IMG/VR virus record: IMGVR_UViG_3300018429_000060
Location: 1 to 64,000 of that record
From: a virus
Length of the DNA stretch: 64,000 bases
Reading direction: 5' to 3' (one strand)
The notes under the pieces are model-generated. The model was given only the letters and a program-made list of their open reading frames with translations. It did not search any database and had not been told where the DNA came from. Numbering within the stretch: position 1 is the first letter of the stretch; each line of letters begins with the position of its first letter. Positions 7,460-32,203 of the stretch are shown here, piece by piece. The position numbers and the translations under genes are program-made.

Positions 7460-9988
7460 GTGCCAGAGGACGAGCCGTGGCTGCCTGCCACCGCGCCGGC
7501 CGCCCTGGTCGCCGCCGAGCAGCGCATGATCGCGGCGGTCCGGGTGGCGTTTCGCACCTACCTCGGCGCCGTCCGCGCCGCGGTCCTGGACCACGACACC
7601 GAGGCGGTCAGCCTCGCGGTCAGTGAGCTCGCCACTGGTGTGGTGACCGCTGATGCCGACCCGGCCGAGCTGGCGCCGAACTTCGACGCCTGGCCGCCGG
7701 TGGCCGTGTGGACCGCGGCCGCTGCCGTGATGGTGCCGGTGTCGGCGGCAACGTGGGAGCAGGCGTTCACCGACACCCTCACCCCGGCGCAGGCGCTGGT
7801 GTTGTCCGGCAGCGACTACCTGGCCGAGCACCTGGCCGACACGACCACCCGCCTGACCAGCGCCACCTGGCCCGACGAGGTCTACAACGCGGTCCGCACG
7901 GTCGTCACCGAAGCCATCGTGGCCAACCGGACGCTGGCCCAGATCCGCGCCGACGTGGCGACGACGCTGGGGCTGTCCCGGTGGTCCAACCGGGCCATGG
8001 TGATCGCCCGCACCGAGGTGATGGCCGCCCACAACGGCGGCACCTGGCGGGCCGGCCTGGCCCGGCAGCAGGTGCTCGGCGAGACGCTGTTCAAGCACTG
8101 GCAGGCCACCTCGGACACCCGCACCCGGCTGGCGCACCGCGTCATCAACGGCGCCGTCGTCGCCGCTGATGAGCCGTTCCTGGTCGACGGCGTGGCCCTG
8201 AGCCGCCCGCATGACCCGCTCGCGCCCGCCGATCAGACCGTGCAGTGCCGCTGCACCCTCAACTGGCTCGACGAGGACGAGGCCGACGAGGCCCGCCGCC
8301 TGTACGCGCTGTACCTGCCCAACGTCACCGACAACGAGGGGAACCCCGTCGTGACCACAGCCACCCCCACCGCGCCGGCCGCGCCGGCGCCCGCTGCCCT
8401 GGCGCTCGCGGCGCCCGGCGTCACAGCAGCACCCGCTGCGTCGGCGGCCGCGCCGGCGGCGGACCCGGTGACCGCGGCCGCCGGCGACGGCCAGGCGCAG
8501 ACGCCGCTGTCGGGCTGGTGGGCCGGGCCGCTGCTCGCGCTGAACCACCGCACCGGCGACAGCGGCCCGGTGCCGCGGATGTTCGGCATCCCCGAGGACG
8601 GCATCTCCTCCACCGTGCACCCGTGGCTGTCCTGGCAGGAGGCGTCCGGGTTCGGCCACGAGGGCAAGGTCAGCATCGGCCGGCCCGAGGTGCTGTGGGT
8701 CGCCCCGCACCAGCTCGACGGCGTCGACGTCGAGCACCTGTGGGGGGCGGGCAGCTTCGACATGAGCGACCCGGTGGCCGTCGACGTCGCCCGCAAGGTC
8801 GCCGACGGGTTCGCCGGCACCGTCAGCGTCGACCCGGACTCCGCGCAGGTGGAGCTGCGCTGGCTCGACGCCGACGGCAAGGAGGTCGACGAGCCCGACG
8901 AGGACGACATCTGGGCGTTCCTGGAAGGCGAGGACATCGGCTGCGCCCCGGTCGACTTCTTCCACACGTGGCGTTTCGCCGGCACCACCCTGGTCCAGGA
9001 CCCGGCGTTCCACACCGGCTGGGTCCAGGTCACCGACACCCCACCGGCCGAGCTCGCCGGCGACAACGCCGTGTGGACCCGCGACGTCGCCGGCGCTGTC
9101 ACCGCCTCGGCCGCCGTGGCGCCGCCCACCGGGCAGGTCGGGTCGCAGCACTGGTGCGAACAGGTCGCGGCCGCGGTGCCGTGGGAGCCGCCGGCGGCGT
9201 TCTTCACCAACCCGCAGCTGACCGGCCCGACCAAGGTCACGGTGACCGGCGACGGCCGCGTCCACGGCCACGTCGCCCGCTGGGACACCCTGCACGAGAC
9301 CGTGCGGATCCCGCCGCCGCGGTGCCCGCTCGGCGGCACCTACGCGAAGTTCCACCGCCACCCGGTCACCACCGCCGACGGCCACACGGTGCTCACCGGG
9401 CCGCTGGCCACCGGCGGCCACGCCGACACCGACCCCAGGGTCAGCCTCACCACGGCGCAGGCGCACTACGACAACCCGCTGTTCGTCCTGGCCGACGTCG
9501 TCGCCGGCGAGGACGACCACGGCATCTGGGTATCCGGGGCGCTGCGGCCGGGGGTGTCGCCGTTCCAGGTGATGCTCGCCTACCGGTACTCGTTCAGCGG
9601 CGACTGGCGCGACCAGGCGATGATCGCCGCCTGCTCCTGCTCGGTGCCGGCGTACGAGCTGCGCCACGACCAGACGGTGGTCGCGCTGGCCGCGGCGGCG
9701 GGCCCGAACCGGCCCACGCTCGCCTCGCCCCGGCAGCGGTCGCGCCGCTACCGCGACGGCAGCCTCGCCGTGCTGGTGGCCAGCGGCATCATCCGCCCCT
9801 CAGCCGGTCGTCTCACCCGCGGTGGTCGCCCGCCGTCGGCGGCCGGGCCGACCGGCTGGGACCTGTACCGGGGGTTCCAGGCAGCGGCCGCGACCGATGG
9901 CCAGGTCCGCGCCGCTCTGGGGCGGGTGGTCGGCCAGCCCGCCGCCGTCGCAGCGGCCGCGGCCCGAATGTCCCGAGAGGCCGGCTGA
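7460..9988 (+). CDS. MuF-like head morphogenesis protein fused to a putative capsid maturation domain
   Basis: 'RAMVIARTEVMAAHN', 'KHWQATSDTRTRLAH', 'QCRCT' MuF motifs; C-terminal 'GRVHGHVARW...GIWVSGALRP...SGDWR'. Confidence 0.8.
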   Translation: MPEDEPWLPATAPAALVAAEQRMIAAVRVAFRTYLGAVRAAVLDHDTEAVSLAVSELATGVVTADADPAELAPNFDAWPPVAVWTAAAAVMVPVSAATWEQAFTDTLTPAQALVLSGSDYLAEHLADTTTRLTSATWPDEVYNAVRTVVTEAIVANRTLAQIRADVATTLGLSRWSNRAMVIARTEVMAAHNGGTWRAGLARQQVLGETLFKHWQATSDTRTRLAHRVINGAVVAADEPFLVDGVALSRPHDPLAPADQTVQCRCTLNWLDEDEADEARRLYALYLPNVTDNEGNPVVTTATPTAPAAPAPAALALAAPGVTAAPAASAAAPAADPVTAAAGDGQAQTPLSGWWAGPLLALNHRTGDSGPVPRMFGIPEDGISSTVHPWLSWQEASGFGHEGKVSIGRPEVLWVAPHQLDGVDVEHLWGAGSFDMSDPVAVDVARKVADGFAGTVSVDPDSAQVELRWLDADGKEVDEPDEDDIWAFLEGEDIGCAPVDFFHTWRFAGTTLVQDPAFHTGWVQVTDTPPAELAGDNAVWTRDVAGAVTASAAVAPPTGQVGSQHWCEQVAAAVPWEPPAAFFTNPQLTGPTKVTVTGDGRVHGHVARWDTLHETVRIPPPRCPLGGTYAKFHRHPVTTADGHTVLTGPLATGGHADTDPRVSLTTAQAHYDNPLFVLADVVAGEDDHGIWVSGALRPGVSPFQVMLAYRYSFSGDWRDQAMIAACSCSVPAYELRHDQTVVALAAAAGPNRPTLASPRQRSRRYRDGSLAVLVASGIIRPSAGRLTRGGRPPSAAGPTGWDLYRGFQAAAATDGQVRAALGRVVGQPAAVAAAAARMSREAG

Positions 9989-14241: not shown

Positions 14242-15287
14242 CCGCACCAGCCCCGCCGGCCGCGTTGTGCGCCTCGTTCATCGGCGCCCGCGTGCTGCGC
14301 GTGACCCTCGTCGACGCCTGCGGCCGCCCCATCTGGGGACCGCGGTCGCAGGTGACCACCGAGGGATTCGTGTCCATCGAGATCGCCCCGGAGGTCGAGG
14401 AGGGCGACGCGATGAAGGTCAAGACCGCCGGTGGGGTGCTGTGCGTCAACGAACGCGGCGCCGACCAGGTGTCCTGGTACAACCTGACGATCGACTTCTG
14501 CCAGGTCGACCCGGACCTGTTCCTGATGATGCAGCGGACCTGGAAGCGGGTCACCGACGCCTCCCGGCAGACCACCACCGGGTGGCGGCAGGGCGAGAAG
14601 ATGTCCGACTCCCTCGGGTACGCGCTGGAGGTGTGGCCCAAGGCGTCCGGCAAGGGCGCCGGGCAGGCGTGTCTGCTCGGCGGCGGCGTCTCGGACCCGA
14701 CGCTGGTCCCCGGCGGCTACTTCGCCCTGCCGTGGGTCCTCGGTCTCGCACCGGAAGCGTTGACGCTGGAGAACGCGCCGACGTCGTTCAAGCAGAAAGG
14801 CCGCACCAAGCCCGGCAGCCTGTGGGGCCGCGGCCCGTACAACGTCACCCGCGACCTGGACGGTGACCCGGCGCGGCTGCTGGACCCGATCGACCCCGGC
14901 TTCTCGGTGCCGATCTGGACCCCGCCGTACATGACCTCCGGCGACCCGGACCACCTGCACGCCGAGATCGTCACCCTGGCCCCGCCGGTGCCGACCTGCG
15001 GCGCAGCGCCGGTGTGGAACCCCGACGCCGTCGTCCCGCTGCTGGCGGTGGCGCCCGGCGCGAACACCCGCACGGCGCAGCTGACGGTGACCAACTTCGC
15101 CCTGATCGGCAGCTCCGGGACGGTCAACTGGGGCGACGGCTCGATGGAGCCGATGCCGGGGTCCTCGGCCGGGGTGCTGTCCCACGCCTACCTGCCGGCG
15201 CACGACGGCACCGCGCAGACCATCACGTTCTACGCCGGCAACGGCCACGCCCCGGTCACCATCGCGTTCACCCCCGTGGCTCCGTAG
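14238..15287 (+). CDS. major tail protein with C-terminal PKD-like domain
   Basis: 'LRVTLVDACGRP...EGFVSI...EVEEG...LC...FCQVDP' actinophage major tail pattern; C-terminal NWGDGS...SHAY. Confidence 0.75.
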   Translation: MTAPAPPAALCASFIGARVLRVTLVDACGRPIWGPRSQVTTEGFVSIEIAPEVEEGDAMKVKTAGGVLCVNERGADQVSWYNLTIDFCQVDPDLFLMMQRTWKRVTDASRQTTTGWRQGEKMSDSLGYALEVWPKASGKGAGQACLLGGGVSDPTLVPGGYFALPWVLGLAPEALTLENAPTSFKQKGRTKPGSLWGRGPYNVTRDLDGDPARLLDPIDPGFSVPIWTPPYMTSGDPDHLHAEIVTLAPPVPTCGAAPVWNPDAVVPLLAVAPGANTRTAQLTVTNFALIGSSGTVNWGDGSMEPMPGSSAGVLSHAYLPAHDGTAQTITFYAGNGHAPVTIAFTPVAP

Positions 15288-15295: not shown

Positions 15296-16300
15296 GTGAG
15301 CGACCCCTACAGCCGGCACCCCGCGCACACCCCCGCCGCCGCCGCGGCGGGGGTGTCGGCGTCACCGACCGCGGTGCCGCCGACCGGCGCCGCGTTGGTG
15401 GTGATCGACCCGGACGGCACCTGGGCGCTGGACGTACCCGGTGGGCCGTGCCGCACCTGGCCGGTGGCCCCCGCCTGCAGCTGCCTGCCGAACAACCCGG
15501 CCGAGTGGACCGCCGACCACCAGATCGCCGTCGAGACGGCCACCGAGATCCTGTGGGAGCTGACCGCCGGCCGCTACGGGCTGTGCCGCGAGACGGTGCG
15601 GCCCTGCCAGGAGCCGGCGCCGCAACAGTGCCCGCCGCGCGGCTGGCGCGGGGTGGGCGGCATGTACCCGGTGCTGGACGGCGGCCGGTGGACCAACGTG
15701 TCCTGCGGCTGCTCGCCGTCGGGGTGCAGCTGCTCGTCGGCCGCCGAGCTGGAGCTGCCCGGCCCGGTGCACACCGACCCGCCGGGCACCCTGCTGCCCC
15801 AGTACCCGATCCAGGTGTGGATGAACGGCGCCCAGCTCACCACCGGGTGGCGCCTCTACGACGGCAACCGGCTGATCCGCACCGACGGCGCCCCGTGGCC
15901 GATGTGCCAGCAGATGTGGCGGCCGCTGGTCGCCCCGGCCGGTGAGCCGGCCGCGGCCGCGGGCACGTTCGGGATCGTCTACTGGCGCGGCACCCCGGTG
16001 CCGGCCGGTGGCCGCCGCGCGGTGGCCCAGCTGGCGTGCGAGTTCTGGAAGGCGTGCCACGACAAGGACGGTTGCCGGATCCCGTCGCGGGTCGAGCTGG
16101 TGGAACGCGAGGGCGTCACCTACCGCATGATCGACAAGCAAGAGTTCCTGAAGCAGGGCCGCGTCGGCATCACCGAGATCGACCTCTGGCTCGCCGCGGT
16201 CAACCCGCGCAGCCGCCACAGCCCCTCGACCGTCTACTCCGTCGACGGCCCGGTGTGGCGCGTCGAGCGCACCACCGGCCGGTACGGCGGCCCGCCGTGA
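15296..16300 (+). CDS. head-to-tail adaptor
   Basis: 'ATEILWELTAGRYGLCRETVRPC', 'LACEFWKAC', 'REGVT', 'GITEIDLWLAAVNP'; position after major tail. Confidence 0.7.
   Translation: MSDPYSRHPAHTPAAAAAGVSASPTAVPPTGAALVVIDPDGTWALDVPGGPCRTWPVAPACSCLPNNPAEWTADHQIAVETATEILWELTAGRYGLCRETVRPCQEPAPQQCPPRGWRGVGGMYPVLDGGRWTNVSCGCSPSGCSCSSAAELELPGPVHTDPPGTLLPQYPIQVWMNGAQLTTGWRLYDGNRLIRTDGAPWPMCQQMWRPLVAPAGEPAAAAGTFGIVYWRGTPVPAGGRRAVAQLACEFWKACHDKDGCRIPSRVELVEREGVTYRMIDKQEFLKQGRVGITEIDLWLAAVNPRSRHSPSTVYSVDGPVWRVERTTGRYGGPP
15327..15356 (+). terminator. 13-bp stem hairpin after major tail gene
   Basis: ACACCCCCGCCGC-cgcc-GCGGCGGGGGTGT perfect inverted repeat. Confidence 0.5.
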
Positions 16301-16307: not shown

Positions 16308-19300
16308 ATGACGCTGCCGCTGGTCCAGGACCAGGTGTTGTGGCCGCTGCTCACGGCGCTGCGTACCTCGGCCGCGGGCCAGTTCGGCCTCGTCCACCGC
16401 CCGGTGTGCGCGTTCGACGTGTACTGGTCCGACCATCCGATCCCGGCCGACCAGTGCGACTGCACCTGCGAGGACGAGGTGCCGGGCGGTCAGGGCGCGG
16501 CGTGGGTGCGGCTGGTCACCGCCACCAGCATCCTGGCGGCCAACACCACCGCCCGGCCGGTGCGGCAGCCGTGCGCCGGCGCCGACCTGCTGCTGACGAT
16601 CGAGGTCGGCGTGCACCGCTGCGCCCCGCTGCTGGACGGGACGAAGCCGCCCCACCAGCTGGCCGTCGATACGTACTCCGCTGGCATGGTCCAGGACGTT
16701 CTCGCGGTGCACCGGGCGTTCCTGTGCGCGCCGGCGCTGCGGGACCTCGACTGGCAGTTGAGCAGCCTCGGCCCCTCGGGGCCGCAGGGTGGCTGCGCCG
16801 CGGTGATCGGCACCGCGCAGGTGATCGTGTCCAACTGCTGCCCGATCGTGCTGACCGTCGGCTGGGTACCGGACCCGGACGTGCTGCTCGGTGTCCACGT
16901 CACGGGCGGTGGCTACGGCCGCCACGGCGCCCTGCTCGACTGGGGCGACGGCACCCCACCCGTGCCGATCGGCCCCACGGTCGCGCCGCTGCAGCACACC
17001 TACGCCGTGCCCGGTACCTACCAGGTGATCGTGGTCGACCGGCAGGAACCCACCGCGCGCACCACGGTCGCGATCACGGTCAAGGACCACGAGCCGATCG
17101 CGCACGTGTTCCTCGACTCGGAGGACGACTGGGCGGTGCTGCTGTGGCTCGACGAGCCCGACGACGGCACCGTGTACCTGGTCGACTGGGGCGACGGGTC
17201 GTCGCTGCAGCCGATGGCCGGGCAGCAGCTGGACCGGGTGCCGCCCAAGCCGCGAGTACCGCACCCCTACACCAAGCTCGGCCGCTACCCGATCACCGTC
17301 ACCGACACCCGCAGCCGCCGCGTCACCCACACCGGCGCCGAGGTCGGCGACCTCGGTGTCCTGCCCTCCTTCGACACCCCGGCGCGGCCGCGGCTGGAAG
17401 TGCTGTGGATGGCCACCGGCGCCACCTACCGCGTCGACGGGTTCATCACCGAGACCGGAGTGGTGCCGGCGTCCGGGCGGATCGTCATCGACACCGACGA
17501 GGACCTGCCCCCCGGCCAGCACAGCGTGGTCATCCGCGAGGAGATCAACGGGATCGTGCGGCGCGCCACCCGACGCTCCTACCTGATCCCGTCGCCGTGG
17601 GACTGGCGCCTCGGGGTGTGGACCACCTGGGGGCCGACCCCTGGGCAGCCGGGGATGCAGACGGTCAACCTGACCCCGCGCACCGCCCGCACCCCGTGCG
17701 CCATCGACTGGGGCGACGGCTCCCCCATCGAGACCATCCCGGCCGCCGGCACCGCCTCGCACAACTACCGGGTGCCGATCACCGGCGCCGGGGTGCGGCT
17801 GACCGTCACCGAGACCGTCACCGACGAGATCACCGACCCGCGCACCACCAGCCGCACCCTGGGCAGCCCCCGCTACGTCGGCACGCCGATGCTCAACGCC
17901 CGCCAGACCCGCGCGGTCGACCTGGACGTGGCCGGTCTGGACCACGACATCGACGACGACCGGTACGTCGTCTACTGGGGCGACGGCACCAGCGACTCCT
18001 TCGGCGCGCAGGGCCGCTGGTACCCGGCCAACCACCGCTACGCCAACGACGGCGTCTACACGATCACCGTCGACAGCCCCGGCATGGCCGCCCCGGTGAT
18101 CCGCACCGCCACTGTCATCAGCTACCCGGCGCCGGTGGTCACCATCGTCGAGGCCCGCAACCAGCAGGGCGAGCACCTGGACCCGGACCGGCTGACCGCG
18201 CAAGTCGCGATCGACAACCGCGCCGTCGGCGGCGACTGCCGGGTCGAGTTCGGCGACGGCTCCCCCGCCCACATCAGCGGCGAGCAGGACACCGTCACCC
18301 ACGCCTACCCCCGAGCGGGCCGGTACTGGGTGGTCGTGACCGCGCTGGCCGACACGACCGCGAAAGGACGCGCCTCCGTGTCCGTGCCATTCGGCCAGGA
18401 ACGCACCTTGATCTTCACCGTGACCGGGCACGGCTACACCGCCAGGGTCACGATCACCGGCAGCACCCCCGGCAAGACCGTGCAGGTGGTGTGGACCAGC
18501 GGCACCTCACCGCAGCCGGTGCCGCCGTCCGGGTTCGTCGAGCACACCTACCCGCCGATCGACGACATCTACAACGTCACCGTCTCCTACGACGACGAGT
18601 CCGAGAGCGTCGACGTCGCGGTGATCATCCCCTTCCCCGACGACACCGACACCGCCGGCGACGGCTCCGGGGGCGTGGGGTCGGAGCTGGAGCTGCGGCC
18701 GGTCGGCGGGCTCACCGACCGGCAGGACCCCTACCTGTGGTGGAACGTCGGCGCGCACGACCGGCAGCTCAAGGCACGGTGGCTGTTCGGCACCCAGCAG
18801 GTGATCATCTACTGGGGCGACGGCGCCATGGAGGTCATCGGCGTCGGCCAGGCCGTCACCCACGACTACGACCACCTCGGCGGCTACCTGCTACGGCTGC
18901 GCGAGATCGGCCCCGGCGCCTGGATCACCGCCGCCCAGGTGATCATCCGCGGGCAGCGGCCGCCGGCGCAGCTCACCGCGCACCCCGACGACCCGCGGAC
19001 GCTGCGGCTGCAGTTCGGTGACCTCGACGCCTCCGAGCTGATGCCCCGCTGGCGCGTGTTCTGGGCCTGGCCCGACCAGCACCACGACGACGTGTGGGCC
19101 CCCGCCGGTGGCCACGTCGACCATCCCGTCCCGGCGGGCAAGTACCTGCTGCATGTGCTCGACCTCGGGTCCAAGTGGTTCACCGAGATCGACACCGAGG
19201 TGCCGCCGGTCGACCCGGCCGTCACCCTCACCGCCACCGGCCGCGAGGTGCAGCTGAGCGTCGACCCCACCTCGGCCGGCGCCGAGCTGCGCGTCGACTG

Positions 19301-19451
19301 GGGCGACGGCTCCCTGCCGGAGCCGATCACCGGCGACACCGCCAGCCACACCTACCCGCCCGCCGACACCACGACGTTCGTGGTGCAGGTGTGGCACGTC
19401 GACGAGTCCAGTTCCGCCAGCCACGCGATCACCCTTGGAGAGCAGCCGTGA
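16308..19451 (+). CDS. tail-terminator-like N-terminal domain fused to multiple PKD-like repeats
   Basis: N-terminal 'GAAWVRL...VGVHRCAP...GPQGGC'; six WGDG, one FGDG and degenerate repeats, most followed by H-x-Y. Confidence 0.7.
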   Translation: MTLPLVQDQVLWPLLTALRTSAAGQFGLVHRPVCAFDVYWSDHPIPADQCDCTCEDEVPGGQGAAWVRLVTATSILAANTTARPVRQPCAGADLLLTIEVGVHRCAPLLDGTKPPHQLAVDTYSAGMVQDVLAVHRAFLCAPALRDLDWQLSSLGPSGPQGGCAAVIGTAQVIVSNCCPIVLTVGWVPDPDVLLGVHVTGGGYGRHGALLDWGDGTPPVPIGPTVAPLQHTYAVPGTYQVIVVDRQEPTARTTVAITVKDHEPIAHVFLDSEDDWAVLLWLDEPDDGTVYLVDWGDGSSLQPMAGQQLDRVPPKPRVPHPYTKLGRYPITVTDTRSRRVTHTGAEVGDLGVLPSFDTPARPRLEVLWMATGATYRVDGFITETGVVPASGRIVIDTDEDLPPGQHSVVIREEINGIVRRATRRSYLIPSPWDWRLGVWTTWGPTPGQPGMQTVNLTPRTARTPCAIDWGDGSPIETIPAAGTASHNYRVPITGAGVRLTVTETVTDEITDPRTTSRTLGSPRYVGTPMLNARQTRAVDLDVAGLDHDIDDDRYVVYWGDGTSDSFGAQGRWYPANHRYANDGVYTITVDSPGMAAPVIRTATVISYPAPVVTIVEARNQQGEHLDPDRLTAQVAIDNRAVGGDCRVEFGDGSPAHISGEQDTVTHAYPRAGRYWVVVTALADTTAKGRASVSVPFGQERTLIFTVTGHGYTARVTITGSTPGKTVQVVWTSGTSPQPVPPSGFVEHTYPPIDDIYNVTVSYDDESESVDVAVIIPFPDDTDTAGDGSGGVGSELELRPVGGLTDRQDPYLWWNVGAHDRQLKARWLFGTQQVIIYWGDGAMEVIGVGQAVTHDYDHLGGYLLRLREIGPGAWITAAQVIIRGQRPPAQLTAHPDDPRTLRLQFGDLDASELMPRWRVFWAWPDQHHDDVWAPAGGHVDHPVPAGKYLLHVLDLGSKWFTEIDTEVPPVDPAVTLTATGREVQLSVDPTSAGAELRVDWGDGSLPEPITGDTASHTYPPADTTTFVVQVWHVDESSSASHAITLGEQP

Positions 19452-20305
19452 GCAGAACCGCCACCCGCCCCGCCACCGACACCGATGCCGAGCCCGTCGA
19501 CGGCGCCCCGGACCCGGCCATCCCGCCGGCCGAGGACGCGGCGGCGCTGCGCTGGGTGCCGAAGGCGATCGCCGAGCTCGGCGTCGTCGCCGTGCCGACC
19601 AACGTCGTCGGCGAGTTCACCATGGACTGGGGCGACAGCAAGCGGACCGACAGCTCGGCCGGGGCACCCCCGGTCAGCCACGCCTACGCCAGCGCCGGCG
19701 CGTACACGGTGACCCTGACGCAGGGCGACGCGATCGTCGCCAAGACGCAGGTGGTCATCCGCGCCGGCAAGGGCCCGGCGGTCACCGCGGCGCCGGCCGC
19801 CGACAACCCGAACATCATCGAGCTGACCTTCGCCGACGACCCGGCCGAGATCGCCTCCCAGTACGCGATCACCTGGAACGTCGGCGGTGTCGCCGAGGTC
19901 GTGTTCGCGCCGAAGGGGACGGTGCTGTCCCACGGCTACACCGCCGGCGACCACGTGATCGTGGTCCGCGACCTCTACACCCGCCGCGCCGTCCGCCTGG
20001 AGGTCACCGTGGTCGACGCCACCTTCGATCCCGACTTCTCGGCCACGCAGGGCGAGAACACCATGACGGCGCTGGTCACGCTCACTGCGGTGGCCACCGT
20101 CAAGGACGTGCTCGTCGACTGGGGCGACGGTCAGCAGAGCACCGTGGCGGCGGCCGAGGTGGGCGGCAAAGCGACCCACGCCTACGCGGCCAACGACACC
20201 TACATCATCCAGGTCGTCTACGCCGACGGCTCCACCGACGGCTCCGCGCGCACCGTGACGATCCCGTTCCCGGCCCGCGACGGCCGGGGCAGCAACCGGC
20301 CATGA
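19448..20305 (+). CDS. PKD-repeat protein
   Basis: GTGA coupled; MDWGDS...SHAYASAGAYTVTL and VDWGDG...THAY. Confidence 0.75.
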   Translation: MSRTATRPATDTDAEPVDGAPDPAIPPAEDAAALRWVPKAIAELGVVAVPTNVVGEFTMDWGDSKRTDSSAGAPPVSHAYASAGAYTVTLTQGDAIVAKTQVVIRAGKGPAVTAAPAADNPNIIELTFADDPAEIASQYAITWNVGGVAEVVFAPKGTVLSHGYTAGDHVIVVRDLYTRRAVRLEVTVVDATFDPDFSATQGENTMTALVTLTAVATVKDVLVDWGDGQQSTVAAAEVGGKATHAYAANDTYIIQVVYADGSTDGSARTVTIPFPARDGRGSNRP

Positions 20306-22728
20306 CCAAACCGGTCAGCCGGCTGGAGTGGTTCCCGGATCCGGTCACCACGCTCGCGGTCCGCGCGGGCTGGTTCGGCGCGGGCTGGCACTACACGCTG
20401 TTCTGGGGTGACGGCAGCAGCCAGCGGGTGCTGCACACCCAGCCGCCGGTCCGCCACCGCTACCCGGCCGCCGACACCTACACCCTGACCGCGGTCAGCG
20501 AGATCACCCAGGTGCAGGTGTCCACCCGGATCACCGTGCGGCCGCAGCGGACACCGCAGGTGAGCGCCGACCACCTCGGCGGCGGCCGGGTGCGGCTGAC
20601 CATCGTGGGCGGCTGGCGCGGTGACGTGCTGCACCGCGTCGACTGGGGCGACGGCATCCCGGCGCAGGAGTACTCCGGCACCCAGCTCACCCCCGAACAC
20701 CAGTACCCGGCCGGGATCGAGAACCCCACGGTGCTGGTGCAGGACGTGCCGGCGCGGCGCGCGGTCACCCTGGTGGTGCCGATCGACCCGTCCGAGCCGC
20801 CGCCGACCGACGCCCGGTTCGGCTGGCACGTCACCCGCCTCTGGGACGACCGGCCGGGGTCGCCCGGCAACATCGAACGCGCCGACGGGGTCGTCCTCGG
20901 CGCCGGCGTGCCGGCCGGCGCCGTCGTCGGCCTGTCCTACATCGGCGGTAGTGACGTCTACGCCACCGCCGACCGGCACGGCCACGTCACCTTCCCCCAG
21001 ATCACCTGGATCGCCGGCTCCCGCCAGTTCATGCCGCCGTTTCGCAGCGCCCGGATCTGGTACCCCGACCGGCTGCACTGGCCCACGGTGCAGCTGCCCT
21101 GCCTGGTCCGCCGCGACGAGGTCCAGGACGTCGTCCCGGTCTACACCATCGACCCCGGCGGCGACCCCATGGTGCTCACGATCGGGGTGGCCAACCCCCA
21201 GGCCGGCACCTACCGGGTGCTGTGGGGCGACGGCACCGCGCAGCAGGACGTCGTCTGCGACGGCCGCGCGTTGCGGGCCAGCCACCGCTACCGCAGCGGC
21301 GCGCGGGTGATCATCACCGTCACCGACCCGGACGGCAACAGCGGCGAGCGGGTCGTCGCCGCCCCGGAGATCGGCGGCCCGTGGTGGGGGCCGGACGCGC
21401 TGGGCAAGCCCCGGCTCAAGGTCGGCGTCCGCGACCTCGCCGGCGGCGACTGGTTCACCCCGCTGTCGGTCGACTGGGGCTGGGACGGCCAGTCGGCCCG
21501 CTTCTGGGGCCACCCCACCGCCCCCGACGGCAAGCAGAACGCGCTCGAGGAGTGGTACCCGAACGACCTGCGCGGCCAGGACGTGACCGTGTGCGTGTCG
21601 GCGCCGCTGCGCCCGGCGCTGATCGTCACCCGCCGCATCCCGCCGGCCGGATCCCGAAACCACGTCCAGCCCGATCCGCCGGGCTCGACCGGAAAGTCGA
21701 TCAACAAAGGAGAATCCGTGTCACAGACCCATCCGCCCACCCTGGCCGCCGAGGGCTACGTCACCCCCGGCGGCAGCGCCGGCATCCAGCTGCAGCACCT
21801 GTGGACCTGGGTGCAGGACGTCCGGTTCAAGTCCGCGGCGTTCGTCGGCGGCCTCAGCTCGACCTACACCGCGACCCTCACCGACCACGACATCCTCGGC
21901 CGGGTCGCCCGCGCCGAGGTGCAGCTGGCCGAGGTCGACCCCGGCGAGTACGAGGTCGTCGCCGTGGCCAACGACGGCGCGTTCGAGATGAAGCACCGGC
22001 TGATCGTCGAGGCCGTCCACGCCGGCACGATCATCGCCACGCTCACCCCGCTCGACGACCAGGGCAAGGTCGACCTGCGCGTCGAGCCGATCAGCCGCAA
22101 CGCCGCGTGGGCCGACGCCAGCACCCCGGCCAACCAGGGCGACGGCGAGGACTGGTTCGGGCTGGTCTTCCAGCGGCCCTCCGACACCGCCCACGCCACC
22201 CTGATCATCGCGGGGGTGAAGCCCGGCACCTACCCGATCGCGGTGCGTCAGCGGTTCCACGGCGGCAAGACCATCGTCGTCAACGGCACGGTGACCGTGC
22301 CCGCGGACCCGACCAAGCCGGCCAAGGGCGAGCTGCCGCTGGTCTACACGCACCCCGTCGACACCAACAAGCTCGGCAACGGCTCCTCGGTCGAGCACGT
22401 CATCGACTTCGGCGACGAGCACGACCAGGCCAACGCCCGCTACGGCGTCGCCGTCGAGCTGGTCGTCACCGGCCCCAACGGGCAGAAGCCCGACCTGCCG
22501 GCGGATGTCCGGGCGGCGCTGCGCGACCTGCGGCCGCTGACCGTGGCCCGCGCCACCGACCACGTCACCCTCTACGGAGGGAACCCCGATGTGTTGCGGG
22601 GCAACAAGAACTTCAAGATCAAGTTGGTGGTGACCATCACCCCGGTGCCCACCCCGGCCGGCTACTCCGAGGACGACGACCCGACCGCCCCGGACCACGC
22701 CGCCGAGCTGGCCACGAGCACCGCATGA
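20302..22728 (+). CDS. PKD-repeat/Ig-like protein
   Basis: ATGA coupled; LFWGDG, VDWGDG, VLWGDG motifs; beta-rich C-terminal half. Confidence 0.7.
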   Translation: MTKPVSRLEWFPDPVTTLAVRAGWFGAGWHYTLFWGDGSSQRVLHTQPPVRHRYPAADTYTLTAVSEITQVQVSTRITVRPQRTPQVSADHLGGGRVRLTIVGGWRGDVLHRVDWGDGIPAQEYSGTQLTPEHQYPAGIENPTVLVQDVPARRAVTLVVPIDPSEPPPTDARFGWHVTRLWDDRPGSPGNIERADGVVLGAGVPAGAVVGLSYIGGSDVYATADRHGHVTFPQITWIAGSRQFMPPFRSARIWYPDRLHWPTVQLPCLVRRDEVQDVVPVYTIDPGGDPMVLTIGVANPQAGTYRVLWGDGTAQQDVVCDGRALRASHRYRSGARVIITVTDPDGNSGERVVAAPEIGGPWWGPDALGKPRLKVGVRDLAGGDWFTPLSVDWGWDGQSARFWGHPTAPDGKQNALEEWYPNDLRGQDVTVCVSAPLRPALIVTRRIPPAGSRNHVQPDPPGSTGKSINKGESVSQTHPPTLAAEGYVTPGGSAGIQLQHLWTWVQDVRFKSAAFVGGLSSTYTATLTDHDILGRVARAEVQLAEVDPGEYEVVAVANDGAFEMKHRLIVEAVHAGTIIATLTPLDDQGKVDLRVEPISRNAAWADASTPANQGDGEDWFGLVFQRPSDTAHATLIIAGVKPGTYPIAVRQRFHGGKTIVVNGTVTVPADPTKPAKGELPLVYTHPVDTNKLGNGSSVEHVIDFGDEHDQANARYGVAVELVVTGPNGQKPDLPADVRAALRDLRPLTVARATDHVTLYGGNPDVLRGNKNFKIKLVVTITPVPTPAGYSEDDDPTAPDHAAELATSTA

Positions 22729-23498
22729 GCACACCGTCCGCATCCGCGGCGCTGCGCCGCGCCACCGCCGGCCCCGGCCGCTACATCCTGGAGGTGGCGC
22801 TGGCCAACACCGGCCAGGTCGAGCTCACCACCTGGCAGGCCACCCTCACCCTCCCCGACGGCGCCGGCATGGTCGCCAAGGCCAACGCCGCCGTCGACAA
22901 CACCAGCGCACCGCACGCCTACACGGTCACCCCGACCGGCCTCGGCCCCCTCGCTCCGGGGCAGCGGCAGGTCGTCGCGGTCGAGGTGTACGGCACGGGC
23001 CGGGCGCCGGTGGCGGCCCAGTTCACTGCCCAGGCCGACAAGGTGAAGGTCAAGGCCGCGGTGGCGGTGATGGCGGTGCTCATCGACGGCCAGTCGTGCA
23101 AGGCCGACGAGTGCACCTGGCCCGGCTCCACCACCATCGACAAGGGTGTCTCCGGTATCGAGATCGAGATCGGCACCGGCAGCGGCGCCGGCGGCGGCCT
23201 CGGCCTCGGCGGCGGCGGCGGTGGCGGCGCCCAGACCAACTTCAAGGTCCTCATGGAGTGGACCAACGACGCCGGCGGCGGTGGTGGCGCCGGCGGCGGC
23301 GGCGGGGTGTCCATCGGCGGCGCGGAGGCCCCGGTGCAGCAGTGGGTCGACGCCGGCGAGCAGGCCCAGAAGCAGCACCAGGGCAACCAGGGCGGGCAGG
23401 ACGGGTCGCAGTACAACAAGGACCCGTTCGCCGAGCTCGGCGCGAAGATCGACCAGCTGGGCGACCGCGTGGTGGCGCTGGAATCGAAGGCCGCCTGA
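22725..23498 (+). CDS. CBM2-like domain protein with Gly-rich linker and coiled-coil tail
   Basis: 'EVALANTG...TTWQATLTLPDG...YTVTP...LAPGQ' resembles CBM2; poly-Gly tracts. Confidence 0.55.
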   Translation: MSTPSASAALRRATAGPGRYILEVALANTGQVELTTWQATLTLPDGAGMVAKANAAVDNTSAPHAYTVTPTGLGPLAPGQRQVVAVEVYGTGRAPVAAQFTAQADKVKVKAAVAVMAVLIDGQSCKADECTWPGSTTIDKGVSGIEIEIGTGSGAGGGLGLGGGGGGGAQTNFKVLMEWTNDAGGGGGAGGGGGVSIGGAEAPVQQWVDAGEQAQKQHQGNQGGQDGSQYNKDPFAELGAKIDQLGDRVVALESKAA

Positions 23499-24046
23499 TG
23501 GGGCCGCAGAGGACCACCGCGTTCGCCGACTGGGTCACCGACCCCACCGCCGCCCCGGCGGCCGCGGCCGCGCCGACCCCCGGCGGCGGGATGGGCGGCG
23601 GCCAGACCGGCAGCACGCCACCCTGGCAGGACTGGGCCGGCGGCGGCATCGGCGGCGACTCCGGGTCACCACTGCCGGTCGTGGTGCGCTGCCCGATCTC
23701 CTACGACGCCGCGGCCGCGCAGGTCACCCTCCCGTCGGCGCAGAAGCCCGGCTACAGCGTCACGGCGTTCGTGGGCATCGACGGTGGCTTCACCGGCGCC
23801 GACCTGCCCACCGCGGTCAACGCCCGACTGCTCGACGACACCACCGTGCTCGTCAAGCTCACCGGCGCCGGCGCCACCTCCCACGGGCCCGAATACACCC
23901 CGGCGCCCACACCGGGGCAGAAGCGCACGGCGGTGCCGGTGCCGCCCGGCAAGCCCTACGTCGCCGTGGTGGTGTTCCCGGCGGCCGGCGGCATGGGCGG
24001 CGGCCAGCCCATCACCAAGCCGGGCATGGAAGGCGGTCAGCCGTGA
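23498..24046 (+). CDS. hypothetical Gly/Pro-rich protein
   Basis: TGATG coupling; repeated GGMGGGQ. Confidence 0.55.
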   Translation: MGPQRTTAFADWVTDPTAAPAAAAAPTPGGGMGGGQTGSTPPWQDWAGGGIGGDSGSPLPVVVRCPISYDAAAAQVTLPSAQKPGYSVTAFVGIDGGFTGADLPTAVNARLLDDTTVLVKLTGAGATSHGPEYTPAPTPGQKRTAVPVPPGKPYVAVVVFPAAGGMGGGQPITKPGMEGGQP

Positions 24047-25356
24047 CCGACCCCGACACCGACCAGCACCGGGGCGGCTGTAGCCGCGGCTACACCGTGG
24101 TCACCGCCGCGGTGGACGACCTGCACGCCACGGTCCGGCGGATCGAGGACCTGCTGCGGCAGGGCCCGCCGACCCGGCGGACACTGCGGCCACCCGTGGA
24201 CGGCATCTACGCCCACAACAAGGGCGGCGGCTGGTGGTTCCTCACCTGGCACCAGGTGCCCGGCGCCACCGGCTACGAGCAGGACCATCCCGACACCGGC
24301 GTCGGCCCGACCCACGGCCCGTCGACCACCATCTTCGCCGTCGCCAGCGGCGACCAGCGGGTGATCCGCGTGCGGACGGTCAGCGACGGCCACAACTCCC
24401 CGTGGGTGAAGTACACCCTGTGGTGGGACGGCCGGCTGACCTACGAGATCGAGGGTGGAGATCCGCCGCCGCCGGCCGACCCGGCCGTGCCGGTGCTCGA
24501 CCGGGTGACCGCCGGGCACACCTCGATCGCCGCCTGGTGGACCTCGTTCGACGTCACGCAGTGGGAGACCAGGCTGGTCGACGCCGACGGCGAGCAGCTG
24601 CAGGGGCACAACGTCACCCAGACCAACGCGGTGTTCAACGAGCTGCGGCCGTCCACCACCTACGGCCTGGCGGTCCGCGCGGTCGACGTCGACACCGGCC
24701 GCCGATCCGACTGGACCGACACCAGGTGGAAGACCACCCTCGCGGAAGGGGAGGTGCCGCGCCCCGACCGGCCGACCGGGTTGTTCGCTCACTGCATCGC
24801 CGACACCACGGCGAAGGTCGAGTGGGACCAGCACACCCAGGTGGACGCGTGGGAGGTGTGGATCGGCGACGACCGCGACGCCGGCGCGATCGCGACGTCC
24901 ACCCCGCTGGTGAAGCTGCTCGGCCTGCAGCCCGACACCGAGTACACGGTCCACGTGGTCGCCGTCGTCGGCGGCGAACCCGGCGACGCCGACTACGCCG
25001 AGTCGGAACCGGCCAGTCACACGTTCCGCACGCGGGCGACGATGCTGCCGCCCGACGAGGACCCACCGGGTGACATCGGCGCCGATCTGCCGGCACCGCA
25101 GGAGCTGATGGTGCGGGCGTCGTCGTCGACGACGGTGGAGGCGGTATGGCGCGACGCCCGCCCCGACACCGGGCAGGGCAACTTCTACGTGGCCACCTGC
25201 AACGGGCGTGACCTGGTGCGGGTCGACGGCAGCGGCATCACCTTCACCGACCTGCCACCGGACGAGCCGGTGACGGTGTCGGTGTACGGGGTGATGGGGA
25301 AGAAGCTGACCGGCGTCGCCACCAAGGGCACGACCATGAAGGGAGCCGGCTGGTGA
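24043..25356 (+). CDS. fibronectin type III repeat protein
   Basis: 'LRPSTTYGLAVRAVD', 'GLQPDTEYTVHVVAV', 'FTDLPPDEPVTVSVYGV' FN3 signatures. Confidence 0.8.
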   Translation: MTDPDTDQHRGGCSRGYTVVTAAVDDLHATVRRIEDLLRQGPPTRRTLRPPVDGIYAHNKGGGWWFLTWHQVPGATGYEQDHPDTGVGPTHGPSTTIFAVASGDQRVIRVRTVSDGHNSPWVKYTLWWDGRLTYEIEGGDPPPPADPAVPVLDRVTAGHTSIAAWWTSFDVTQWETRLVDADGEQLQGHNVTQTNAVFNELRPSTTYGLAVRAVDVDTGRRSDWTDTRWKTTLAEGEVPRPDRPTGLFAHCIADTTAKVEWDQHTQVDAWEVWIGDDRDAGAIATSTPLVKLLGLQPDTEYTVHVVAVVGGEPGDADYAESEPASHTFRTRATMLPPDEDPPGDIGADLPAPQELMVRASSSTTVEAVWRDARPDTGQGNFYVATCNGRDLVRVDGSGITFTDLPPDEPVTVSVYGVMGKKLTGVATKGTTMKGAGW

Positions 25357-25973
25357 CCACGACCGAGAAGCCCCGCGTCGAGCGGATCATCATGCCGGGC
25401 TGGATCCGGCACGGCTACGGCACCAACCCGAACTCGCGGGCCTACTGGTGCGCGGAGAACCACGCCGGCTGCGGCCCCATCGAGTCCGAGCCGCAGAGCG
25501 TGGAAGCCCCCAAGGGGTTCCCCCGGTCGGGACCACCGGACGGGCAGCTCGCCTCCGGTGGCCACGTCCGGTTCGGCAGCCTGGACAAGGTCACCGCCCC
25601 GGACGGATCACCCTGGCCGGCGACCACCCTCACCGTCGGCGCACGAGTGCGGATGCGGTGGTGGCTCACCGCGGTGCACAAGACCGAGTCGTGGGAGTAC
25701 TGGATCACCCGCGACGGGTGGGACCGCACCCAACCGCTGACACGGGCCCAGCTGGAACCGGCGCCGTTCAGCCGCATCACCTGGCCGTGCCCCGACGGCG
25801 GCTGGACCTGCCGACTGCCGGCCGAGGACGTGCACCACTGGATCTGGCTGCCTCCGGGCAAGGAAGGCGAGCACGTCATCTACGGCATCTGGAACGTCGG
25901 CGACACCGGCAACGCCTTCTACACCACCATGGACGTCCGCATCGTCCACCCCGCGGCGGCTCCCGCCCGGTAA
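25353..25973 (+). CDS. AA10 (CBM33) lytic polysaccharide monooxygenase-like protein
   Basis: 'HGY...SRAYWC...EPQSVEAPKGFP..GPPDGQLASGG', 'WWLTAVHKT..WEYWIT', 'HVIYGIWNVGDTGNAFY..MDV' match CBP21/GbpA-type AA10. Confidence 0.9.
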   Translation: MTTTEKPRVERIIMPGWIRHGYGTNPNSRAYWCAENHAGCGPIESEPQSVEAPKGFPRSGPPDGQLASGGHVRFGSLDKVTAPDGSPWPATTLTVGARVRMRWWLTAVHKTESWEYWITRDGWDRTQPLTRAQLEPAPFSRITWPCPDGGWTCRLPAEDVHHWIWLPPGKEGEHVIYGIWNVGDTGNAFYTTMDVRIVHPAAAPAR

Positions 25974-26032
25974 ACCCGCGAACACCGGCCCGGTGACCAC
26001 TGCGTGGCACCGGGCCGGGTTGGGAGAGCGAC

Positions 26033-27376
26033 ATGCGTACCGTGGATCCGCAGTCGGTCGCGTTCCGCGAGGCCACCCCGGCCGACCTCGAACCCGGCAC
26101 CTGGGAAGACCTGGTCCACCGCGGCCTGGTCCTGCCAGCCCCCACCGGCGAGCCGCTACGCCTGCCCGACGACTGGGAACCCGATCGGTGGGACGCCGCA
26201 CGCACCGTCGCCAAGACCCGCGAGCAGGCCGCGGCGGCCGCCGCGGCGCGCGGCGACGACCCCACCGCCTACGGCGCACTCGCCCAGCAGCTGGATCAGC
26301 TGGCCGCGGCCGCCGCCGGCGGACTGTGGGTGCCGTGGCTTGTCGACGCCGCGCGCCTCACCGGCTACCCGGTGTTCGTCGAGCCAGGGTGGAACGGCCG
26401 CGGCAACGGCGGCCTGCGGCTGCTCGAGGTCGTGGTCGGCCACCACACCGCCACCCCGGACAGCGTCGCCGGCGACTACCCCTCGCTGCGAGTGGTGCGC
26501 GACGGCCGGGCGGGCCTGCGCGGGCTGCTGTCCCAGCTCGGCATCGGCCGCTCCGGCGCGATCTACGTCCTGGGCAACGGTCTCGCCTACCACGCCGGCG
26601 TGTCCGCCTACGCCGGCTACTACGACCTCAACGACGAGGCCCTGGGCATCGAGGCCGAGGACTCCGGCGACGGCACCTGGACGGCGGCGCAGCTGGACTG
26701 CTACCCGCGCCTGGTGGCGTCGCTGCTGTTCTACATGCGCCGCGGCGCCGAGCGGTACTGCTCGCACCGCACCTGCGCCCTGCCCGCCGGGCGCAAACCC
26801 GACCCCGCCGGCATCGCCGACGCGTGGATGCACACCCGTGTGCGGCACCTGCTCGGCGACCCCACCCACCGCATCCCGAGAGGCAACAGCATGACCAGTG
26901 CCGAGCAGATCGCCGACGCCGTCTTGAACCGTACGTTCGTCCGGCACGGTCCCAACATCCCGCACGCCGGGCAGCCCACCAACCTCGGGGCGATCGTCGC
27001 GTGGCTGGACGCCATGGTGGTCAATGGGCCGTGGGCTTACCCCGGCGCGCAGCAGCTGCTCGTCGACGTTGCCGCCACCCGTGTCCTGGTGACCACCCTG
27101 GCCGGTCGCGACCCGCAGCTGCCGCTGGACGCCGAGCAACTGGCGGCGCTGCTCAACACCAACATCGACCAGGAAGCGGCCGCCCTCGGTGACCGGCTGA
27201 CCGCCCAGATGGTCGCAGCCCAGGCCGCGCTGGCCGCTCAACTGACCCAATACCTGGACTCGATCCAGGATCGGTTCCTGCAGATCGTGCAGGCCGACAA
27301 CCAGGACCAGGCCCGCGCGTTCTTCGACCAGCTTCGGGCGATGATCCCGCCGCCCGCGCACCAGCTCACCGCGTAA
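26033..27376 (+). CDS. endolysin, N-acetylmuramoyl-L-alanine amidase (Amidase_2)
   Basis: 'GHHTA', 'AYHAG', 'LGIEAE', 'SHR...RKPDP' Zn-amidase motifs. Confidence 0.85.
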   Translation: MRTVDPQSVAFREATPADLEPGTWEDLVHRGLVLPAPTGEPLRLPDDWEPDRWDAARTVAKTREQAAAAAAARGDDPTAYGALAQQLDQLAAAAAGGLWVPWLVDAARLTGYPVFVEPGWNGRGNGGLRLLEVVVGHHTATPDSVAGDYPSLRVVRDGRAGLRGLLSQLGIGRSGAIYVLGNGLAYHAGVSAYAGYYDLNDEALGIEAEDSGDGTWTAAQLDCYPRLVASLLFYMRRGAERYCSHRTCALPAGRKPDPAGIADAWMHTRVRHLLGDPTHRIPRGNSMTSAEQIADAVLNRTFVRHGPNIPHAGQPTNLGAIVAWLDAMVVNGPWAYPGAQQLLVDVAATRVLVTTLAGRDPQLPLDAEQLAALLNTNIDQEAAALGDRLTAQMVAAQAALAAQLTQYLDSIQDRFLQIVQADNQDQARAFFDQLRAMIPPPAHQLTA

Positions 27377-30893: not shown

Positions 30894-31370
30894 CTACGTG
30901 GCCGCTGCCGAGTCCGGTTCGGGCCGCCGCGGCACCGGGATCCCCCGCGCCGCCAGATAGGCGATCAACGCATCCTCGACGACATCCTGGATGTCGACGT
31001 CATGTTCAGCGGCGTAGAGCCGTACCGCCTGGCGCGCGACCCGCGTCATGTTGCAGTTGAACGCCACCATGTCCATGTCGGTGACTGTCGCCGCCGCGGT
31101 CCCTCCCCGGCGCCGGCGGCTCCTCGTCACCGGCGGCGCCAACGTCCCCGCGGTCCCCGTCGCTGTGCCCGAGGGACGAACACCCGCCGTGCGGGCGGTG
31201 CGCGGCCTGGTGGCCGGCTGAGCCGCCGGTACGGGCGGCTCGGCGGTGGCCGGCTCAGCCGGAGCCAGAGCCGGTGCGGGCGCGGGAGCTACCGCGGCCA
31301 CCGCCGCGGGGGCTGTCGGGTCCGCCGGGTGGGTCGACGCGAGTGGGCTGACCCGACGCGGTGCGCTCAT
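30894..31370 (-). CDS. ribbon-helix-helix partition adaptor (ParG-like)
   Basis: ATGA overlap with the parA stop; disordered N-terminus then 'VAFNCNMTRVARQAVRLYAAEHDVDIQDVVEDALIAYL' (strand-helix-helix). Confidence 0.7.
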   Translation of the reverse strand: MSAPRRVSPLASTHPADPTAPAAVAAVAPAPAPALAPAEPATAEPPVPAAQPATRPRTARTAGVRPSGTATGTAGTLAPPVTRSRRRRGGTAAATVTDMDMVAFNCNMTRVARQAVRLYAAEHDVDIQDVVEDALIAYLAARGIPVPRRPEPDSAAAT

Positions 31371-32203
31371 CCTGCCCGTACCTCCTCGTGCTGGTCCGCC
31401 AGCAGGCGGCCGACGAACCGGCCGTACACCTCGGCCAAGATCCGCAGCTTCGAGTCCGGCGACTGGTCCAGCGCCACCTGCGTGTTGACCGCCGTCTTGA
31501 TCCCATTCCACAGCGGGATGACGTCGGTGTGGTCGTCGGCCGACGCCCACACCGACGCCTCCGGGAAGTGCTGCTGAATCTCACCCAGGTTCAGCTTCTC
31601 CTCCTTGGTGCCTCTCCACCGCGAGATCACCACGCCGGCCCACCGCAGGCTGGGGTTGCTGTACCTCTGCACCTTCGTGATGGTCTCGCGGAGCAGGACC
31701 AGTCCGGCCGCACTCCACCGGTCTGCCTCCATGACGACCAGGACCGAGGTGTTGTCCGTGGCCGCCAGGGCATTGACCAGCAGCTGGCCCAACGCCGGGG
31801 CGTTGTCGACCAGCACCAGGTCGTACTGGTCGATCACCGGTTGCAGCGCCTCCCGCAGCCGGAACTCACGGCCCGACATGGACGCACTGATCATCTGCTC
31901 GACGTGCGCCAGGGCGCCGCTGTTGGTGACCGGGGCGAGATCCACGCCGGGCCAAATCGACTCCACGATGACCTCACGTAACGGGATCGCTCCGTTCGGG
32001 TTCAGCGCGTCAGCGACCGAGATCGTCCCCGGAGCAAGTGGCTCCGTCGCCAGCGCGTCGGTGGTGTTGCCCTGCGGGTCGAGGTCGATGACCAGCACCC
32101 TCAGCTTCTTCACCACCGCCGCACGTGCCAGGTGGACGACAGTCGTCGACTTGCCCACGCCGCCCTTCTGCATGGCGACCACCACAACACGAGCGTGTCT
32201 CAT
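31367..32203 (-). CDS. parA: ParA/Soj partition ATPase
   Basis: deviant Walker A QKGGVGKSTT, 'VIDLDPQGN', 'YDLVLVDNAP'; AGGAAAGG RBS before ATG at 32203. Confidence 0.92.
   Translation of the reverse strand: MRHARVVVVAMQKGGVGKSTTVVHLARAAVVKKLRVLVIDLDPQGNTTDALATEPLAPGTISVADALNPNGAIPLREVIVESIWPGVDLAPVTNSGALAHVEQMISASMSGREFRLREALQPVIDQYDLVLVDNAPALGQLLVNALAATDNTSVLVVMEADRWSAAGLVLLRETITKVQRYSNPSLRWAGVVISRWRGTKEEKLNLGEIQQHFPEASVWASADDHTDVIPLWNGIKTAVNTQVALDQSPDSKLRILAEVYGRFVGRLLADQHEEVRAG

Follow-up and report, generated by a model that had tools for sequence, protein, structure and literature searches.

The stretch of DNA analysed here (hereafter the window) makes up the opening 64 kb of a provirus record in IMG/VR (IMGVR_UViG_3300018429_000060; 91,306 bp, 72.6% G+C). 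On its plus strand, which also carries the other window features described below unless stated otherwise, a gene with a GTG start (25353..25973) encodes a 206-residue lytic polysaccharide monooxygenase (LPMO) of family AA10, composed of a leader and a catalytic domain. It lies between a gene for a 437-residue protein with fn3 repeats (Pfam fn3; 24043..25356) and one for an Amidase_2 endolysin, an N-acetylmuramoyl-L-alanine amidase (26033..27376; PF01510, E 1.1e-11; PHROG 880, E 4e-27). The endolysin gene starts 59 nt downstream of the LPMO gene, and the amidase is its only Pfam activity. Gene coordinates were taken from gene calls based on GC3 (G+C content at third codon positions) and from a list of open reading frames (ORFs). 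The enzyme family itself is known; what is new is a clade of AA10 proteins that are phage-linked, lack a signal peptide and bear a leader, together with the alternative maturation that this implies.

Against the Pfam model LPMO_10, the protein scores 140 bits (E 1.9e-40; curated cut-off 23), with residues 20–195 aligned to the whole of the model (positions 1–183 of 183), and a six-frame search of the entire record for the family returned the same place as its single match. An AlphaFold2 (AF2) model based on 27 homologues has a mean predicted local distance difference test (pLDDT) score of 86. In Foldseek, it superimposes on 5FTZ, an AA10 of Streptomyces lividans, with a target-normalised template modelling (TM) score of 0.94 and a root-mean-square deviation of 1.8 Å. 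As modelled, the protein has the AA10 fold, an immunoglobulin-like beta-sandwich with a flat copper face.

Copper binding in AA10 enzymes requires the free amino group and the imidazole of the histidine at residue 1, plus a second histidine, and the LPMO reaction uses O2 or H2O2 plus a reductant. His20 (codon at 25410..25412) pairs with the first residue of all the solved AA10 chains that were recovered (5FTZ, CBP21, 6T5Z, 5WSZ, and 5L2V) and so corresponds to His1 of the mature enzymes. The second histidine of the histidine brace, His109 (25677..25679), is read in the motif LTAVH, and Phe189 (25917..25919), the axial phenylalanine of the AA10 copper site, in the motif GNAFY. The preliminary description of this locus, made from the letters alone, had claimed a complete AA10 domain with this His/His/Phe set, and the claim holds: by sequence, fold, and site residues the protein is a member of AA10, and the one hallmark that fails is the signal peptide. 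The identical LPMO protein is also recorded on a 122-kb contig.

The first 19 codons (25353..25409) encode a hydrophilic leader, MTTTEKPRVERIIMPGWIR, which ends in Arg19, with a putative cleavage site between Arg19 and His20. The maximum Kyte–Doolittle hydrophobicity of the leader (nine-residue mean) is 0.5, compared with 1.6–3.4 in the signal peptides of at least 87 secreted homologues, and its 19 residues contain neither a hydrophobic core nor an AxA site, as the preliminary description had noted, nor a twin-arginine motif. In the AF2 model, the pLDDT of the leader is about 55, which gives no confident docking. To our knowledge, every LPMO studied so far obtains its catalytic N-terminal histidine from the removal of a signal peptide during secretion, and a literature search returned nothing on actinophage LPMOs or on LPMOs without a signal peptide.

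The translation start is well marked. A Shine–Dalgarno sequence, AAGGGAG, lies 7 nt upstream of the GTG, which overlaps the TGA of the fn3 gene as GTGA (25338..25356 for the whole arrangement); co-orientation and translational coupling with virion-type genes, and a place next to the endolysin, are thus as first described. A shorter ORF from the ATG at 25392 was rejected, since homologues conserve the residues ahead of it and a good Shine–Dalgarno sequence precedes the GTG. No ATG, GTG or TTG occurs in frame upstream of the GTG, and all that the frame holds there is the end of the fn3 gene, read through as a sequence rich in Arg and Gly. There is therefore no hidden signal peptide, whether reached from an earlier start or through the upstream frameshift for which the preliminary description had allowed, and the same design is shared by 26 homologues. 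A programmed −1 fusion to the fn3 protein was discarded as well: the last 140 nt hold no slippery heptamer, and the layout is not kept in the syntenic contig L072 (see below), where there is a 3-nt gap and a stop 25 codons upstream.

A homologue search over 5.8 billion protein clusters gave 147 homologues, the best 27 of which constitute the clade. All 27 are devoid of a signal peptide; their leaders are hydrophilic, 10–29 residues in length, and the residue preceding His1 (position −1) is invariably Lys or Arg, while the remaining leader varies between subgroups. Nearly all other homologues have a classical hydrophobic signal peptide with Ala, Ser or Gly at −1. A maximum-likelihood tree (quick search) was inferred from the mature domains only, so that the leader cannot drive it. 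In this tree, the 27 signal-less AA10s lie on one side of a branch with a Shimodaira–Hasegawa-like approximate likelihood ratio test (SH-aLRT) support of 99, and their sister group consists of 66 secreted small AA10s of the LpmP/SliLPMO10E type from Streptomyces, Amycolatopsis, Embleya, and relatives. By this branch, the signal-less state has a single origin. When 1.84 billion proteins are considered at the 50%-identity level, only three represent the clade, and the next homologue of bacterial type scores far lower.

His20, His109, Phe189, and the second-shell residues Glu51, Trp180, Asp184, and Thr185 are invariant across the 27 members, whose mean column identity is 52%. In the catalytically dead paralogue P0115, neither of the brace histidines nor the DTxNAF motif survives, which shows that copper-site residues decay when they are not needed. 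P0115 and an intact signal-less LPMO, P0014, are both found on Logan contigs of 40,685 bp, probably the same phage-like contig. The basic residue at −1 in 27 of 27 leaders fits the non-Sec proteolysis after Arg proposed in the preliminary description, the cleavage itself being putative. Longer forms fused to tail proteins were not found in the clade among the 5.8 billion clusters. A separate observation concerns P0135 (506 residues, low GC, eukaryote-like), the single high scorer that falls between the phage clade and the secreted bacterial AA10s. Behind its signal peptide it has two AA10-like domains in tandem, the second with an internal histidine, and its C-terminal module is rich in Cys.

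Two subgroups are recognised within the clade. Subgroup A, to which the window LPMO belongs, has the leader motif K-P-x-[VL]-E-x-[IV]-[IV]-x-P-G-W-x-[KR]-H; an inserted loop of 8–12 residues with its own Cys pair (C146/C153 in the window LPMO) is present in 12 of its 13 members, and several have an acidic C-terminal tail. Subgroup B proteins are 183–196 residues long and have the leader M-x-x-I-x-x-P-x-P-K-G-T-R-H. The ancestral C33–C40 pair is kept in subgroup A and in the secreted groups and lost in subgroup B (0/14), while the second ancestral Cys pair, in either of its secreted types, is present in the secreted groups and absent from both subgroups. As all conserved Cys pairs are lost, subgroup B is disulfide-free, which fits what is expected of cytoplasmic folding. 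The window LPMO retains four Cys.

The subgroups also differ in the aromatic residue before EPQS, at the position of Tyr54 in CBP21. It is kept by the secreted enzymes and by 14 of 14 subgroup B members, but by only one of the 13 members of subgroup A, and its equivalent in the window LPMO is Ser45. Tyr54 of CBP21 is important for chitin binding; the PDB entry 2BEN is the CBP21 Y54A mutant. Since the stacking aromatic is replaced by Ser45, the evidence points away from crystalline chitin as the substrate of the window LPMO. Environmental chitin, one of the targets first suggested for it, is thereby less likely for subgroup A.

Logan/ENA assemblies are the source of most clade members, whose contigs there span 2–100 kb. 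No close member was found among 50,697 records of isolated phages or among the plasmids of PLSDB, and the 13 AA10 loci of IMG/VR, all 34–42% identical and matching from residue 19–20 onward, include none that is close to the clade. A motif scan of GTDB species genomes detected no member, nor did 401 genomes of one actinomycete order, in which the only match is a classical secreted copy. In JGI metagenomes, the clade-specific motif identified a single locus, L072. Additionally, P0009 (the LPMO of Saccharothrix sp. HUAS TT1) and P0287, a capsid protein of the phage lineage, both lie on contigs of 200,350 bp, likely a third co-occurrence of the LPMO with this lineage. Eight tblastn matches in isolated phages were set aside: they fall in unannotated Listeria/Enterococcus contigs, match the 478-residue chitin-binding LPMO of the hosts, and are most likely host DNA. 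Unannotated "Listeria phage" and "Enterococcus phage" records of INPHARED (OR848133, OR846781, OR846591, and others) contain the chromosomal multi-domain LPMO gene of their hosts, probably as host DNA in phage assemblies.

The wider gene context is that of a phage, as the preliminary description had stated. A single 842-residue ORF (7460–9988) combines a MuF protein (Phage_Mu_F) with a prohead (capsid maturation) protease domain (9203..9685; PHROG 18402/595), the latter with 42% identity to gp18 of Gordonia phage KimmyK. Downstream lie the genes for the 797-residue major capsid protein (10343–12736), the tail tube protein (14265–15287), and a PHROG 783 protein annotated as head-tail adaptor (15296–16300). 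Then follows a co-oriented, PKD-rich cassette (16308..24046), recognised by PHROG 810 and PKD matches and by its syntenic homologues in L072. Its first gene (16308–19451) encodes a 1047-residue protein with a PHROG 810 domain (function unknown) at the N-terminus and a PKD extension of about 870 residues; four more overlapping genes (19448–24046), the first with a PKD domain and the rest without a family match, lead up to the fn3 gene. Upstream of the head genes, a 148-residue protein with three predicted transmembrane segments (6299–6745; PHROG 781, function unknown) is the sole holin-like candidate, distant from the endolysin.

On the other side of the LPMO gene, the spacer before the endolysin gene contains a predicted RNA hairpin (25960..26026) with a minimum free energy of −44.2 kcal/mol (z −3.3 against shuffles). 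In its outer stem, the Shine–Dalgarno sequence of the endolysin, GGGAG, is paired with CUCCC in the last LPMO codons, and the hairpin may act in translational control of the endolysin or as an mRNA-end structure. Beyond the endolysin, a module containing ParA occupies about 28–36 kb, with a ParA-like gene at 31367–32185 in a reverse-strand region; the tape measure protein (37126–40326) and minor tail genes (about 40–45 kb) follow on the plus strand. The reverse-strand ParA region thus splits the tape measure and minor tail genes from the block of head, tail-tube, cassette, and endolysin genes, an unusual layout that fits a phage-plasmid. A portal homologue lies outside the window, at about 70.7–72.0 kb of the record.

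Siphoviruses of Gordonia, Mycobacterium, and Microbacterium have capsid proteins with about 29% identity to that of the window. Its closer relatives bear the names of Amycolatopsis, Saccharothrix, and Kutzneria, which make a host from the Pseudonocardiaceae probable. The capsid protein has a scaffold-like domain at its N-terminus and a low-complexity Ala/Pro linker of about 230 residues. Conservation across 16 relatives begins at PLR-TFSITASAE (residues ~225–245), the junction of scaffold and mature parts, with a near-invariant Arg that is a candidate maturation cleavage site (PLR|TFSITASAE).

L072, the only other locus in which the gene context could be compared, is a 9.6-kb JGI metagenome contig (Ga0079224_100019663) from a distant syntenic phage. 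It carries homologues of the PKD and fn3 genes of the window in the same order, with 32–44% identity (33% between the fn3 proteins), and one of its PKD proteins has an additional CBM_2 domain. Its LPMO, a member of subgroup B, is 52% identical to the window LPMO and lies 3 nt behind the fn3 protein. The gene after it does not encode an endolysin: overlapping the 3′ end of the LPMO gene, positions 9126–9566 encode the N-terminal part of a flavin amine oxidase (E 1.2e-14 against Pfam Amino_oxidase), whose gene runs off the contig. Flavin amine oxidases belong to an H2O2-making class of enzymes, and H2O2 is a co-substrate of LPMOs, so the L072 oxidase is possibly a phage-borne H2O2 source paired with the LPMO. 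No amine oxidase gene is present in the record of the window itself, and searches for relatives of the fn3 protein or of the L072 oxidase in isolated phages gave none that was useful. The "virion/lysis operon" of the preliminary description is too simple, given the oxidase next to the L072 LPMO and the hairpin that parts LPMO from endolysin in the window.

The missing export signal and the late-operon position suggest, as far as the sequence reaches, that the LPMO is produced late and confined to the cytoplasm. The reading that we favour, tentatively and at somewhat less than even confidence, is that of a phage-adapted pro-form of an LpmP/SliLPMO10E-like AA10, which would act on host wall glycans together with the amidase endolysin at lysis. 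The LPMO, encoded by the last gene of an operon of PKD and fn3 virion-type proteins, would be made late in the cytoplasm as an inactive pro-form. Having no export signal, it would not arrive at the envelope until lysis breaches the membrane, and would do so in the company of the Amidase_2 endolysin. An endopeptidase would cut behind Arg19 and free His20 as the N-terminus of the histidine brace; the copper-loaded enzyme could then oxidatively nick a beta-1,4 glycan, either peptidoglycan strands or an associated surface glycan. It would in this way supply the glycan cutting that the amidase, which cleaves only the peptide-to-glycan link, lacks, and would ease the escape of progeny from hyphae. 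In L072, the amine oxidase could serve as a local source of H2O2 once cytoplasmic amines spill. What we infer in this scheme is the cut and the protease that makes it, how the LPMO is released, what it acts on, and how the phage benefits.

This reading is favoured because the copper site is invariant across the 27 members while P0115 has lost it, and because Lys or Arg at −1 is universal in a clade without signal peptides. It is also favoured because the lpmP product, the nearest solved relative, binds peptidoglycan and aids lysozyme, because the endolysin is an amidase only and the L072 oxidase could make H2O2, and because the loss of disulfides in subgroup B fits a reducing cytoplasm and no tail fusions occur. 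Several observations weigh on the other side. The 91-kb record encodes no trypsin-family protease, and no protease other than the prohead domain was detected in it; no holin was found next to the endolysin. The four Cys of the window LPMO would need an oxidising environment for pairing, and P0142, a more distant signal-less AA10, has Phe instead of Lys/Arg before the histidine. Furthermore, a strong hairpin stands between the LPMO and endolysin genes. In the comparison of gene context, which covers two loci, both keep the virion-type fn3 protein upstream of the LPMO but not the endolysin, which fits a role in the virion equally well.

Such a role, possible but on balance unlikely, would make the LPMO a virion-borne oxidative depolymerase, either docked through the fn3 protein or carried inside the head after trimming by the prohead protease of the MuF fusion. 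In the manner of a tail-spike depolymerase or a virion-associated lysin, it would open the surface glycan or peptidoglycan of the host at the start of infection. The GTGA overlap couples the LPMO to the fn3 gene, the order fn3-then-LPMO is maintained in L072 in spite of an fn3 identity of only 33%, and the hairpin separates the LPMO from the endolysin gene. The upstream cassette, moreover, consists entirely of carbohydrate-binding-type domains, and its first gene opens with PHROG 810 at a place where KimmyK has head-tail genes. The leader is conserved in the manner of a targeting or docking peptide; however, a leader used for docking would leave His20 blocked, the LPMO has no attachment domain, and forms fused to a tail protein do not occur. 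The tape measure and minor tail genes are also 11 kb away, behind the parA module, and the flavin amine oxidase of L072 is unlikely to be part of a virion. As the only protease in the record, the prohead protease is a speculative remover of the leader, and the capsid site PLR|TFSITASAE resembles the P-x-x-R|H leader junctions, although this is a resemblance only. We know of no mapped cleavage site and no cleavage specificity for the MuF-fused prohead protease family, which counts on the negative side here.

A more specific form of this proposal, which we consider decidedly unlikely, is that the 27 members form a phage-specific class of pro-LPMOs. Their leader would serve both targeting and latency and would be removed behind Lys/Arg by the phage's own prohead protease, the one fused to MuF; the active copper enzyme would then travel with the particle and oxidatively breach the peptidoglycan or surface glycan of Pseudonocardiaceae at entry. 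If true, it would have no precedent, either as an oxidative virion-associated lysin or as an LPMO matured other than by signal peptidase.

The enzyme might instead be a non-catalytic glycan-binding module that retains its leader and merely binds wall or environmental polysaccharides, one adhesion domain more on a heavily decorated phage, in line with the old view of these proteins as "CBM33 chitin-binding proteins". There is indeed no encoded route to a free N-terminal histidine, the neighbours are of adhesion type (PKD, fn3, and, in L072, CBM_2), and the dead paralogue P0115 in a related element shows that binding-only derivatives arise. Yet that same paralogue lost the copper-site and second-shell residues that are invariant over the 27 members, a pure binder would have no need of an invariant Lys/Arg at −1, subgroup A has lost the main chitin-binding aromatic, and an enzyme of H2O2-producing type stands beside the L072 LPMO; this explanation is thus improbable. 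Highly improbable is an auxiliary metabolic gene, host-derived chitin or cellulose LPMO cargo that aids the lysogen or community survivors without a role in infection: soil-prophage AA10s have been read as carbon-cycling genes (PMC13507307) and the element looks temperate or plasmid-like (ParA), but a lysogen could not export an LPMO without a signal peptide, the gene sits within a late co-oriented structural operon with an overlapping stop and start rather than in a moron position, the clade is monophyletic, phage-linked, and absent from the 401 sampled actinomycete genomes, and Ser replaces the chitin-stacking aromatic.

More generally, a clade that keeps the full copper site and in which the signal peptide has been swapped for a conserved leader ending in Lys/Arg implies another mode of maturation or a mode of action that has not been described. 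If the enzyme is active, the infection of Gram-positive mycelial bacteria by bacteriophages would become part of LPMO biology and, with LpmP, the case for peptidoglycan or wall-associated glycans as natural LPMO substrates would be strengthened. Enzyme engineering and the design of phage lysins could, in addition, exploit the activation step of an LPMO that is latent by nature. The flavin amine oxidase beside the L072 LPMO hints at a self-contained module of H2O2 production plus LPMO.

Among known systems, LpmP/SliLPMO10E (SCO2833 and its S. lividans orthologue; 5FTZ) and the phage LPMO have in common a single-domain AA10 of about 170 residues, with 42% identity and a TM score of 0.94, as well as the His/His/Phe site and the EPQSVE surface motif, and they belong to sister clades in the tree. 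The structure 5FTZ is that of the S. lividans enzyme. His1 of LpmP is preceded by a Sec signal peptide whose residue at −1 is small, that of the phage LPMO by a hydrophilic leader with Arg at this place. The phage LPMO lacks the second disulfide of the actinobacterial enzymes (positions 67/192) and has the inserted, clade-specific loop with the Cys pair C146/C153, and the Trp or Tyr found before EPQS in LpmP-type enzymes is Ser. The lpmP gene adjoins cslA-glxA-cslZ, whereas the LPMO described here is phage-encoded. The S. lividans lpmP product, which is the enzyme of Chaplin et al. 2016, binds strongly to peptidoglycan, degrades it in a copper-dependent manner, and speeds the action of lysozyme on it more than two-fold (PMC9040799). 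An activity of this kind is what we propose for the phage LPMO.

CBP21 (SmAA10A) and other chitin-active C1-oxidising AA10s have the same fold and active site (42% identity, E 7e-39); CBP21 is secreted and has Tyr54, whereas the phage LPMO is signal-less and has Ser45 at this place. Fusolin/GP37 of entomopoxviruses and baculoviruses, to which the preliminary description had linked the protein, is likewise a virus-encoded AA10-type LPMO that attacks a glycan barrier of the host. Fusolin, however, has a signal peptide and is extended at its C-terminus for spindle crystals. With 15–17% identity and a TM score of 0.4–0.58, the link holds at the level of fold only and reflects an independent acquisition from another source; the true relatives of the phage LPMO are the actinobacterial LpmP/SliLPMO10E-like enzymes.

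The preliminary description knew of no such arrangement in bacteriophages. This must be qualified, as 21 AA10 genes in 12 soil prophages have been presented as the first viral LPMOs and interpreted as cellulose-degrading cargo (PMC13507307, 2026). The one tested there, from a soil isolate of Bacillus velezensis, Klebsiella ornithinolytica or Paenibacillus amylolyticus, has a signal peptide (PMC13507307). Those genes, too, lie inside predicted prophages, but neither a signal-less clade nor a leader nor a position in a structural operon is described for them. A 2026 preprint derives viral AA10s from one ancestral acquisition (10.64898/2026.08.04.742344).

Another point of comparison is lysin B of actinophages, encoded beside lysin A. 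The phage LPMO differs in its chemistry, since lysin B is an esterase on mycolyl-arabinogalactan and the LPMO would carry out a copper-dependent oxidation that needs proteolytic unmasking; its adjacency to an endolysin is, in addition, not conserved in L072. Like lysin B, it would nevertheless be an extra envelope-degrading enzyme that has no signal peptide and is released at lysis.

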